From the NCBI RefSeq assembly GCF_003334355.1, contig NZ_QOWP01000060.1: a stretch of 9,090 nucleotides of DNA. One strand, written 5' to 3'. How positions within the stretch are numbered: the stretch's first letter is position 1; each line of letters opens with the position of its first letter. The stretch comes from Escherichia coli. GTDB lineage: Bacteria; Pseudomonadota; Gammaproteobacteria; Enterobacterales; Enterobacteriaceae. The notes under the pieces were generated by a model. It was not told the origin of the DNA. It ran no database searches and saw only the letters and a program-made list of their open reading frames with translations. Shown here piece by piece: positions 4,957 to 8,812 of the stretch. Both the position numbers and the translations under genes were made by a program.

Positions 4957-7688
4957 CGCATCTGGAACTGGTTCCCGTCCCGCCTGTCGCGCAACTGGCG
5001 GGCGTGAGCCAGCATTATGGAAAAACCGTTGCGCTGAACAATATCACTCTCGATATTCCGGCCCGCTGTATGGTCGGGCTGATTGGCCCGGACGGCGTCG
5101 GGAAGTCGAGCTTGTTGTCGTTGATTTCCGGTGCCCGCGTCATTGAACAGGGCAATGTGATGGTGCTGGGCGGCGATATGCGCGACCCGAAGCATCGCCG
5201 CGACGTCTGCCCGCGCATCGCCTGGATGCCGCAGGGGCTGGGCAAAAACCTCTACCACACCTTGTCGGTGTATGAAAACGTCGATTTTTTCGCTCGCCTG
5301 TTCGGTCACGACAAAGCGGAGCGGGAAGTGCGAATCAATGAGCTGCTGACCAGCACCGGGTTAGCACCGTTTCGCGATCGTCCGGCAGGGAAACTCTCCG
5401 GCGGGATGAAGCAAAAACTTGGGCTGTGCTGCGCGTTAATCCACGACCCGGAACTGTTGATCCTTGATGAGCCAACAACGGGGGTTGACCCGCTCTCCCG
5501 CTCCCAGTTCTGGGATCTGATCGACAGTATTCGCCAGCGGCAGAGCAATATGAGCGTGCTGGTCGCCACCGCCTATATGGAAGAGGCCGAACGCTTCGAC
5601 TGGCTGGTAGCGATGAATGCCGGAGAAGTGCTGGCAACTGGCAGCGCCGAAGAGCTACGGCAGCAAACGCAAAGCGCTACGCTGGAAGAAGCATTTATAA
5701 ATCTGTTACCGCAAGCGCAACGCCAGGCGCATCAGGCGGTAGTGATCCCACCGTATCAACCTGAAAACGCAGAGATTGCCATCGAAGCGCGCGATCTGAC
5801 CATGCGTTTTGGTTCCTTCGTTGCCGTTGATCACGTTAATTTCCGCATTCCACGCGGGGAGATTTTTGGTTTTCTTGGTTCGAACGGCTGCGGTAAATCC
5901 ACCACCATGAAAATGCTCACCGGACTGCTGCCCGCCAGCGAAGGTGAGGCGTGGCTGTTCGGGCAACCGGTTGATCCAAAAGATATCGATACCCGCCGTC
6001 GGGTGGGCTATATGTCGCAGGCGTTTTCGCTCTATAACGAACTCACCGTGCGGCAAAACCTTGAGTTACATGCCCGTTTGTTTCACATCCCGGAAGCGGA
6101 AATTCCCGCAAGAGTGGCTGAAATGAGCGAGCGTTTTAAGCTCAACGACGTTGAAGATATTCTGCCGGAGTCATTGCCGCTCGGCATTCGCCAGCGGCTT
6201 TCGCTGGCGGTGGCGGTGATTCATCGCCCGGAGATGTTAATCCTCGATGAGCCTACTTCTGGTGTCGATCCGGTGGCGAGGGATATGTTCTGGCAGTTGA
6301 TGGTCGATCTCTCGCGCCAGGACAAAGTGACTATCTTCATCTCCACCCACTTTATGAACGAAGCGGAACGTTGCGACCGCATCTCACTGATGCACGCCGG
6401 AAAAGTGCTTGCCAGCGGTACACCGCAGGAACTGGTTGAGAAACGCGGAGCCGCCAGTCTGGAAGAGGCATTTATCGCCTATTTGCAGGAAGCGGCAGGG
6501 CAGAGCAACGAAGCCGAAGCGCCGCCCGTGGTACACGACACCACCCACGCGCCGCGTCAGGGATTTAGCCTGCGCCGTCTGTTTAGCTACAGCCGCCGCG
6601 AAGCGCTGGAACTGCGACGCGATCCAGTACGTTCGACGCTGGCGCTGATGGGAACGGTGATCCTGATGCTGATAATGGGTTACGGCATCAGTATGGATGT
6701 GGAAAACCTGCGCTTTGCGGTGCTCGACCGCGACCAGACCGTCAGTAGCCAGGCGTGGACACTCAACCTCTCCGGTTCCCGTTACTTTATCGAACAGCCG
6801 CCGCTCACCAGTTATGACGAGCTTGATCGTCGGATGCGTGCGGGCGATATCACGGTGGCGATTGAGATCCCGCCCAATTTCGGGCGCGATATCGCGCGTG
6901 GTACGCCTGTGGAACTCGGCGTCTGGATCGACGGAGCGATGCCGAGCCGTGCTGAAACGGTAAAAGGTTACGTGCAGGCCATGCACCAGAGCTGGTTACA
7001 GGATGTGGCGAGCCGACAATCGACACCCGCCAGCCAAAGCGGGCTGATGAATATTGAGACGCGCTATCGCTATAACCCGGACGTAAAAAGCCTGCCAGCG
7101 ATTGTTCCGGCGGTGATCCCGCTTCTGCTGATGATGATCCCGTCAATGCTAAGCGCCCTTAGCGTGGTGCGGGAAAAAGAGCTTGGGTCGATTATCAACC
7201 TTTACGTGACCCCCACCACGCGTAGTGAATTTTTGCTTGGTAAACAGTTGCCATACATCGCGCTGGGGATGCTGAACTTTTTCCTGCTCTGCGGCCTGTC
7301 GGTGTTTGTGTTTGGCGTACCGCATAAAGGCAGTTTCCTGACGCTCACCCTGGCGGCGCTGCTGTATATCATCATTGCCACCGGAATGGGGCTGCTGATC
7401 TCCACCTTTATGAAAAGCCAGATTGCCGCCATTTTCGGAACGGCGATTATCACGTTGATCCCGGCGACACAGTTTTCCGGGATGATCGATCCGGTAGCTT
7501 CGCTGGAAGGGCCTGGACGTTGGATCGGCGAGGTTTACCCGACCAGTCATTTTCTGACTATCGCCCGCGGGACGTTCTCGAAAGCGCTGGATCTGACTGA
7601 TTTGTGGCAACTTTTTATCCCGTTGCTGATAGCCATCCCGCTGGTGATGGGCTTAAGTATCCTGCTGCTGAAAAAACAGGAGGGATGA
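4953..7688 (+). CDS. rbbA: Ribosome-associated ATPase RbbA: fused tandem ABC ATPase domains plus C-terminal ABC-2 permease domain, 911 aa
   Basis: NBD1 Walker A GPDGVGKS (nt 5085-5108), signature LSGGMKQK (5394-5417), Walker [12 protein letters not shown]2 Walker [10 protein letters not shown] (5877-5903), degenerate signature LPLGIRQR (6174-6197), Walker B MLILDEPT. The C-terminal third has one TM helix, a periplasmic-loop-sized insert of roughly 140 aa and five further hydrophobic helices. The 911-aa length matches my memory of K-12 RbbA. Confidence 0.95.
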
Positions 7689-8812
7689 TGCGCCATTTAC
7701 GCAATATTTTTAATCTGGGTATCAAAGAGTTGCGCAGTCTGCTCGGTGATAAAGCGATGCTGACGCTGATTGTCTTCTCGTTTACGGTGTCGGTGTATTC
7801 GTCAGCGACCGTTACGCCAGGATCGTTGAACCTCGCGCCGATCGCCATTGCCGATATGGATCAATCGCAGTTATCGAACCGGATCGTTAACAGCTTCTAT
7901 CGTCCGTGGTTTTTGCCACCGGAGATGATCACCGCCGATGAGATGGATGCCGGACTGGACGCCGGACGCTATACCTTCGCGATAAATATTCCGCCTAATT
8001 TTCAGCGTGATGTCCTCGCCGGACGCCAGCCGGATATTCAGGTGAACGTCGATGCCACGCGCATGAGCCAGGCATTTACCGGCAATAGGTATATCCAGAA
8101 TATTATCAACGGTGAAGTGAACAGCTTTGTCGCGCGCTACCGTGATAACAGCGAACCGTTGGTATCGCTGGAAACCCGGATGCGCTTTAACCCGAACCTC
8201 GATCCCGCGTGGTTTGGCGGGGTGATGGCGATCATCAACAACATTACCATGCTGGCGATTGTATTGACCGGATCGGCGCTGATCCGCGAGCGTGAACACG
8301 GCACGGTGGAACACTTACTGGTGATGCCGATAACGCCGTTTGAGATCATGATGGCGAAGATCTGGTCGATGGGGCTGGTGGTGCTGGTGGTATCGGGATT
8401 ATCGCTGGTGCTGATGGTGAAAGGTGTACTGGGCGTACCGATTGAAGGCTCGATCCCGCTGTTTATGCTGGGCGTGGCGCTCAGTCTGTTTGCCACCACG
8501 TCAATCGGCATTTTTATGGGGACGATAGCGCGTTCAATGCCGCAACTGGGGCTGCTGGTGATTCTGGTGCTGCTGCCGCTGCAAATGCTTTCCGGTGGTT
8601 CCACGCCGCGCGAAAGTATGCCGCAGATGGTGCAGGACATTATGCTGACCATGCCGACGACACACTTTGTTAGCCTCGCGCAGGCCATCCTCTACCGGGG
8701 TGCCGGATTCGAAATCGTCTGGCCGCAGTTTCTGACGCTGATGGCAATTGGCGGCGCATTTTTCACCATTGCGCTGCTGCGATTCAGGAAGACGATTGGG
8801 ACAATGGCGTAA
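7688..8812 (+). CDS. yhhJ: ABC-2 family transporter permease, paralogous to the RbbA C-terminal domain, 374 aa from the chosen start
   Basis: The ORF-track maximal ORF starts at GTG 7604 inside rbbA. The likely true start is the ATGATG at 7685-7690, preceded by AGGAGG at 7678-7683; ATG 7688 gives MRHLRNIF... and a 4-nt spacer, and overlaps the rbbA stop (TGA 7686-7688). The product has TM1, a large loop sharing IPPNF(Q/G)RD with the RbbA permease domain, and C-terminal TM helices. The start is uncertain by one codon (7685 vs 7688). Confidence 0.85.
   Translation: MRHLRNIFNLGIKELRSLLGDKAMLTLIVFSFTVSVYSSATVTPGSLNLAPIAIADMDQSQLSNRIVNSFYRPWFLPPEMITADEMDAGLDAGRYTFAINIPPNFQRDVLAGRQPDIQVNVDATRMSQAFTGNRYIQNIINGEVNSFVARYRDNSEPLVSLETRMRFNPNLDPAWFGGVMAIINNITMLAIVLTGSALIREREHGTVEHLLVMPITPFEIMMAKIWSMGLVVLVVSGLSLVLMVKGVLGVPIEGSIPLFMLGVALSLFATTSIGIFMGTIARSMPQLGLLVILVLLPLQMLSGGSTPRESMPQMVQDIMLTMPTTHFVSLAQAILYRGAGFEIVWPQFLTLMAIGGAFFTIALLRFRKTIGTMA

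Follow-up and report, generated by a model that had tools for sequence, protein, structure and literature searches.

Where does translation of yhhJ begin? In a 9,090-nt stretch of Escherichia coli DNA (the window, to which all positions below refer), the end of rbbA overlaps the beginning of yhhJ, and three codons in one frame could serve as the start of the downstream gene. A mechanical list of open reading frames (ORFs) contains, on the + strand, an ORF of 402 aa that opens with a GTG (7604..8812) and overlaps rbbA by 85 nt (7604-7688), and two adjacent ATG codons (7685-7687 and 7688-7690) are found at the rbbA stop codon TGA (7686-7688). An earlier note on this DNA had argued for the ATGs and against GTG 7604, naming 7688 (or 7685) as the start in view of the Shine-Dalgarno (SD) sequence AGGAGG at 7678-7683. 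Its coordinates for the AGGAGG and the three codons, as well as the length of the ORF and of the overlap, are exact by direct reading and by the ORF list. From the geometry of the junction, the strength of the SD, its conservation and the existing annotation we conclude that yhhJ very probably starts at ATG 7688, which would be the codon used in vivo and coupled to termination of rbbA. This start is already known, being present in curated and in pipeline annotation, and the junction is a textbook translational-coupling junction. The conclusion draws on sequence, comparative and analogical evidence together with the existing annotation.

Geometry of the junction and its Shine-Dalgarno sequence

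Direct reading of the rbbA frame at its 3′ end gives ...CTG-AAA-AAA-CAG-GAG-GGA-TGA. The last base of this stop codon (A7688) is also the first base of the second ATG, which results in the sequence TGATG and an overlap of 1 nt, and a single base (G7684) separates the AGGAGG from the first ATG. GTG 7604 is in frame with both ATGs, and no further ATG, GTG or TTG occurs in the yhhJ frame from 7604 to 7685. ATG 7685 and ATG 7688 lie in the same frame and their products would therefore differ by one N-terminal Met. The frame of the 402-aa ORF is opened by TGA 7598-7600 and is free of stop codons from 7601. Relative to rbbA this is the -1 frame, in which stop-free runs have a mean length of 25 codons and 13 of 35 runs extend over at least 28 codons; the open stretch of 28 codons upstream of the ATGs is of typical length for this frame and unremarkable.

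The hexamer AGGAGG is not enriched in the window (2 occurrences, 2.17 expected), and its significance lies in its position and conservation, not in its count. Pairing of the AGGAGG to the 16S rRNA 3′ end amounts to -10.8 kcal/mol, compared to a mean of -2.5 kcal/mol upstream of start-like triplets. This is the strongest value found upstream of the 482 start-like triplets of the + strand, and only ATG 7685 and ATG 7688 attain it (0.4 percentile). GTG 7604 has no SD, the best pairing upstream of it (-3.1 kcal/mol) being ordinary for the window.

The AGGAGG pairs with positions 3-8 of UAAGGAGG, which fixes the DtoStart value at 12 for ATG 7688 (4-nt spacer) and at 9 for ATG 7685 (1-nt spacer). 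Reporter data show that AUG initiates efficiently at a 4-nt spacer with a DtoStart of 12, and that of two closely spaced start codons only the 3′ one is used at spacers of 2-3 nt, the 5′ codon giving no reporter product; a strong SD in combination with short spacing physically bars the 5′ codon from the P site (PMC9841429).

Conservation of the junction among orthologues

A genome scan gave 80 loci with 77 usable junctions, each anchored on the YhhJ alignment. The loci range over Enterobacterales, Pseudomonas, Burkholderiales, Sphingomonadales, Nitrosomonas, Methylomonas and others, mostly from Proteobacteria, together with a few metagenome-assembled genomes labelled Akkermansiaceae or Planctomycetota. 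The YhhJ of the window belongs to this orthologue group by its ABC-2 membrane domain and by similarity over the full length, the precomputed Pfam matches on YhhJ homologues being PF12698 and PF01061. An RbbA-like gene precedes yhhJ in 78 of 81 loci, its end being no more than about 25 nt away from the yhhJ start. The three exceptions are a locus at a contig end (L035), the locus of Comamonas aquatica (L066), in which about 400 nt lie between the rbbA stop and yhhJ, and that of Pandoraea iniqua (L036). In the latter, yhhJ has a Pro/Ala-rich N-terminal extension of about 45 aa; it begins some 135 nt before aligned residue 1, where an ATGATG still overlaps the stop of rbbA.

An alignment of 14 YhhJ sequences from Escherichia, Salmonella, Klebsiella, Shimwellia, Serratia and Providencia as well as Hafniaceae and Enterobacillus shows that all start at the same Met or no more than two residues away from it (MR.L.NI.NLG.KELR). 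Counted from where the rbbA stop ends, the start codon nearest to aligned residue 1 is found at -1 to +3 nt in 72 of the 77 loci, with gaps of -1 (16 loci), 0 (2), +1 (24), +2 (23) and +3 (7). Between the end of CAGGAG and the start codon, 72 of the 77 loci have a spacer of 5-9 nt; the corresponding values in the window are 5 nt for ATG 7688 and 2 nt for ATG 7685. In the loci with a 1-nt overlap the codon at position 0 is ATG in all 16 cases, while the codon at -3, to which the last rbbA codon contributes its wobble base and the stop codon its first two bases, varies between ATG (6), GTG (6), CTG (2), ATA (Morganella) and GTA (Shimwellia). Because of this pattern and the published spacing data, ATG 7688 is clearly favoured over ATG 7685; thus, of the two codons that the earlier note had left side by side, 7688 stands and 7685 is disfavoured.

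No such continuity exists for the sequence between GTG 7604 and the ATGs. Going upstream from the start, the yhhJ frame meets a stop codon in less than 84 nt in 36 of the 77 loci, and within 18 nt in 26, so that an extension of the 7604 type is impossible in those 36 loci. Of the 17 other loci that share the junction geometry, only 5 (4 of the 10 Enterobacterales among these) have a start-like codon at -84, which is lacking in Pseudocitrobacter and most Citrobacter loci.

The earlier note had proposed that the upstream codons be compared in the yhhJ and rbbA frames across orthologs. For this comparison the 81 nt upstream of the ATGATG were translated in both frames for 17 loci in the same register, and only the rbbA frame proved to be conserved. 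The rbbA-frame peptide, a hydrophobic terminal helix encoded by 27 codons, is 78-100% identical among Enterobacteriaceae relatives. The yhhJ-frame peptide, in contrast, reaches 33-52% identity in every Enterobacteriaceae relative outside E. coli, and most of this identity stems from the shared SD region (the stretch KKQEG/EKTGG). One other E. coli locus, with 96% DNA identity, has 100% identity in the rbbA frame and 89% in the yhhJ frame. In the relatives outside E. coli, most substitutions hit the third and first positions of the rbbA codons and the fewest the second (for example, 4/1/11 and 7/1/14 at positions 1/2/3). In E. coli EC42405, TGA 7598 is changed to GGA and GTG 7604 to ATG, both synonymous in rbbA; the mechanical ORF of this strain is consequently longer and starts with ATG, and the PGAP annotation still calls the start equivalent to 7688, with a product of 374 aa.

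What is retained at the junction is the SD. The AGGAG motif is kept at this position across the 77 orthologous junctions, and the RbbA tail nearly always reads (K/R)-K-Q-E-x-stop, with variation in the final residue and in the choice of stop codon and with the nucleotides CAGGAG nearly fixed. The Glu codon is GAG in 66 of 72 loci, as compared to 39.6 expected from the codon usage of each locus's own rbbA and yhhJ genes, and among the 25 loci with a background GAG share below 0.5 it is GAG in 22 versus 9.8 expected. Likewise, the Gln codon is CAG in 75 of 77 loci versus 60.7 expected from own codon usage. None of 200,000 simulated draws attained the observed GAG and CAG counts, a significance that is overstated because the loci are phylogenetically related. 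The direction of the bias is the one predicted for an embedded SD, and CAG-GAG can be taken, from these comparisons, as a conserved embedded SD. The downstream SD appears to have frozen the last residues of RbbA, selection at the protein level and at the RNA level being separated here by the synonymous-site test only.

Existing records, proposed mechanism and alternative readings

An 801-nt stretch covering the junction is found in 5414 of 5426 complete E. coli genomes with 95.5-99.9% identity, always with the features rbbA and yhhJ. The closest annotated counterpart is yhhJ of MG1655 (b3485, NP_417942.6), a gene of 1125 nt which encodes 374 aa, starts at the equivalent of 7688 and overlaps rbbA by 1 nt. 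The junction is identical to that of the window, and the two YhhJ proteins differ in one residue (99.7% identity). Five PGAP/RefSeq E. coli genomes picked across the identity range (strains 503025, EC42405, O157:H7 3-5-1, UTI89 and HS) all have a yhhJ of 1125 nt that begins on the final base of rbbA. In a collection of 15 billion proteins the exact 374-aa YhhJ occurs as 'ABC transporter permease' on 11 contigs, in a cluster of 4156 members of which those listed are all 374 aa long; the 375-aa and 402-aa forms of the window allele are absent from this collection.

The best 120 homologue clusters are mostly 374-375 aa long, the remainder being mainly shorter; six exceed 400 aa and none is about 402 aa long. 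The six oversized homologues (P0019, P0022, P0024, P0040, P0043 and P0127) were considered as possible extensions of the 7604 type and none carries one: they are C-terminal read-throughs, chimeras, a small internal insertion and a fusion caused by a one-base deletion. The earlier note had also warned that gene callers which extend to the longest ORF would mis-annotate the N-terminus. This was not seen in any record examined: none of these six homologues has a 7604-type N-terminal extension and the 374-aa form is the one in the databases, so the concern was not borne out.

Concerning the proteins, RbbA scores 1596.6 bits against the NCBIfam RbbA equivalog NF033858 (cutoff 1050), and RefSeq genomes carry the corresponding gene under the name rbbA. 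The permease part of this model also matches YhhJ, which shares 27% identity with RbbA residues 589-911 and is, as far as sequence similarity goes, a stand-alone paralogue of the RbbA permease domain. As the third cistron of yhiI-rbbA-yhhJ, yhhJ would be initiated at ATG 7688 within the TGATG, and the AGGAGG, which lies 4 nt before this ATG in the Gln-Glu-Gly codons at the end of rbbA, would serve as the ribosome-binding site. Ribosomes terminating on rbbA would reinitiate at ATG 7688, aided by the AGGAGG, and in a parallel route 30S subunits are likely to be recruited de novo by the very strong SD. The C-terminal domain of RbbA and YhhJ, presumed to be the halves of a heterodimeric ABC-2 permease, would be made at linked rates from one message. 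Matched output of the two permease halves may be the rationale, as the domain architecture suggests.

Coupling of this kind has precedents. Gene pairs with ATGA or TGATG overlaps in E. coli are translationally coupled by termination-reinitiation, and removal of the intragenic SD lowered reinitiation in four of five pairs (Huber et al. 2019, PMC6728339). Reinitiation at 7688 is proposed because the rbbA/yhhJ junction has every sequence feature of this class. The two genes are on the same strand and in one operon (PMC3946193), the stop/start overlap is 1 nt (ATG 7688) or 4 nt (ATG 7685), and an intragenic SD is located at a functional distance, with spacing in the efficient range (PMC9841429). 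Similar to the pairs of Huber et al., rbbA/yhhJ combines TGATG with a strong SD placed in the upstream gene at functional spacing within a single operon, and its partners are taken, on account of the paralogy with the RbbA permease domain, for subunits of one complex; here the coupling is predicted. Unlike those pairs, rbbA/yhhJ has a second in-frame ATG 3 nt upstream, so that both overlap types occur together.

Two further sets of cases are related to this junction. The AUGUG/GUGUG study (PMC9841429) likewise concerns two starts within 3 nt behind one strong SD, where short spacing should exclude the 5′ codon, whereas the two ATGs of yhhJ share one frame and open no alternative reading frame. 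The constraint that SD motifs impose on 3′ ends and stop codons of upstream genes has been described in 'Adaptation of the short intergenic spacers between co-directional genes to the Shine-Dalgarno motif' (PMC2784483). Similar to these cases, CAG-GAG of rbbA would be held at synonymous sites by the downstream SD; unlike them, the constraint in the RbbA family can be followed, in the form of the conserved K-Q-E-x C-terminus, across a very broad phylogenetic span.

Several points weigh against a coupled start at 7688. The database annotations are not independent evidence, since PGAP propagates one model, and the codon-bias statistics count kindred genomes as independent. Literature searches for yhhJ and for yhhJ with rbbA gave no start-site mapping or N-terminal peptide, and yhhJ/b3485 is absent from the supplements of PMC4909307 (TetRP), PMC5576327 (ribosome-signature translation initiation sites), PMC9825163 (INRI-seq) and PMC13245402 (TRAINSPOTTER N-terminomics). 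Published data on rbbA/yhhJ coupling were not found in the literature search either. Plain de novo initiation at the strong SD may stand in place of coupling. Local RNA folding of 7630-7750 gives no sign of an SD-masking hairpin: the fold is no more stable than its shuffles (z = +1.29), and as there is no above-background structure at the junction, coupling by the classic 'unmasking' of an SD is not supported. Finally, ribosomes that have just terminated at TGA 7686-7688 could in principle reach ATG 7685 by termination-reinitiation.

This last route leads to the possibility that initiation takes place at ATG 7685, within a classic ATGA overlap of 4 nt, to give a 375-aa YhhJ beginning with Met-Met-Arg, as the sole product or as a minor one beside that of 7688. 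The codon is in frame, coupling is known for ATGA pairs of E. coli (PMC6728339), the calls for a few orthologues from Providencia are longer by one or two residues (MF/MI/MMI), and in one locus (L029) the start is shifted to -3 or -6. However, ATG 7685 is only 1 nt from the AGGAGG, where even spacers of 2-3 nt left the 5′ start without product in reporters, and its 2 nt from CAGGAG fall short of the spacers of the wider family. Moreover, Morganella, Shimwellia and the two CTG loci have no start codon at -3 despite the same geometry, and no E. coli database record examined starts yhhJ at 7685. We regard a start at 7685 as unlikely, and probably it is unused or marginal; post-termination reinitiation may make a small contribution there, which would add a single Met. 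A start at GTG 7604 would make YhhJ a protein of 402 aa with a 28-residue extension read from the -1 frame, and the 85-nt overlap truly dual-coding. The open frame and a permitted start codon are compatible with it, but since GTG 7604 lacks an SD, the extension is not conserved, the frame is closed in many relatives and the databases give no support (no protein with such an extension was seen in the collection), this start is close to refuted and retains next to no probability. Together with the ordinary length of the open run, this makes the 402-aa reading frame a chance by-product that is not translated as part of YhhJ. The agreement of annotation, ortholog N-termini, frame comparison, closed frames and SD energy on an SD-supported ATG at the rbbA stop upholds the choice made in the earlier note.

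The open upstream frame could also be the landing track of a programmed -1 frameshift in the rbbA tail that joins RbbA and YhhJ in a single polypeptide, a full transporter. In its favour, yhhJ lies in the -1 frame relative to rbbA, this frame has no stop over the last 28 codons, and candidate slip sites are present in the A-run (CUG-AAA-AAA-C, 7671-7677) and in the G-GGA before the stop (G-GGA-UGA). A database protein, P0019, is an RbbA-YhhJ fusion. Against this, the rbbA frame has no canonical X-XXY-YYZ heptamer (CUG-AAA-AAA-CAG, the base before the run being G), and no stable downstream structure is predicted. In dnaX-type frameshift sites an SD is expected 10-14 nt upstream of the slippery run, but here the SD lies downstream of the A-run. 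The stop-start gap differs among orthologues, from -1 to +7 nt in most loci, so the relative frame of the two genes is not conserved. The rbbA tail thus has neither the slippery heptamer nor a predicted downstream structure nor a conserved frame relation, and programmed -1 frameshifting there is extremely improbable. P0019 itself (646 aa, one Logan contig) joins the rbbA tail to yhhJ (...LLLKNRRVMRGLRN) in a way that would be expected if one A were missing from the A6 run 7671-7676; it looks like a single base lost in one short assembly, probably through a mistake of assembly or sequencing or else in a natural frameshift mutant. We also consider it very improbable that low-level -1 frameshifting at the A6 run or at G-GGA yields a single-chain RbbA-YhhJ transporter in E. 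coli or, in a milder form of this idea, that both ATGs are used and give two N-terminal proteoforms.

The yhiI-rbbA-yhhJ operon and other features of the window

The surrounding genes and the elements of the junction are listed in Table 1. The order in MG1655 is yhiJ, yhiY, yhiI, rbbA, yhhJ, yhhI, and yhiI-rbbA-yhhJ are given as a single operon whose promoter is upstream of yhiI (PMC3946193). A consensus scan, the only promoter search made, detected no promoter-like site in 7200-7688. YhiI matches membrane-fusion/adaptor families. At the yhiI/rbbA junction, an ATGA (4953-4956) is preceded by an SD-like GGTGAGG (4940-4946, -7.1 kcal/mol); with the overlap at rbbA/yhhJ, all three cistrons are therefore joined by stop/start overlaps.

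Table 1. Positions of the genes and junction elements in the window.
Feature	Position	Strand	Remarks
yhiI	3889..4956	+	Membrane-fusion/adaptor protein; first cistron; stop overlaps rbbA start (ATGA, 4953-4956)
rbbA coding sequence	4953..7688	+	911 aa; two ABC ATPase domains and C-terminal ABC-2 permease domain; TGA 7686-7688
TGA 7598-7600 and GTG 7604-7606	7598..7606	+	Opening of the mechanical ORF; judged a false start
27 yhhJ-frame codons in the rbbA tail	7604..7684	+	Coding in the rbbA frame only (last transmembrane segment)
SD sequence AGGAGG for yhhJ	7678..7683	+	Within rbbA codons CAG-GAG-GGA (Gln-Glu-Gly)
Upstream ATG of ATGATG	7685..7687	+	375 aa via ATGA overlap; probably unused or marginal
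Initiation codon ATG of yhhJ (very probable)	7688..7690	+	TGATG, 1-nt overlap with rbbA stop
yhhJ coding sequence	7688..8812	+	374 aa; ABC-2 type permease

Other features of the window stand apart from the question of the start codon. The small gene yhiY (37 aa, b4790 in MG1655) is located at 3713-3826 (+), between yhiJ and yhiI and inside the mechanical ORF 3686..3826. Two ORFs of the + strand (264..1271 and 1247..1639) overlap in different frames at the place of the MG1655 pseudogene yhiL (b4660); they look like the same split gene, mapped by colinearity alone. The sole terminator-like hairpin in 7200-9090 is found inside the 3′ end of yhhJ (8736-8763, + strand; stem 8736-8753 followed by a T-rich tail) and is probably meaningless, since one site was found and 2.1 are expected by chance. 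No Rfam match was obtained in the window.

As the 374-aa start is already present in curated and pipeline annotation, no annotation fix is needed; there is nothing to correct, and the result carries little weight beyond correct annotation. The depth of conservation of the embedded SD, and hence of the K-Q-E-x C-terminus of RbbA, is mildly notable. The rbbA/yhhJ pair is a clean and widely conserved case of an SD written into the last codons of the upstream gene, and the junction illustrates how aligned spacing selects between two adjacent ATGs, which makes it a possible teaching case or benchmark for start-site predictors. For the RbbA/YhhJ transporter itself, biochemical constructs should retain the native TGATG junction in the interest of subunit stoichiometry.

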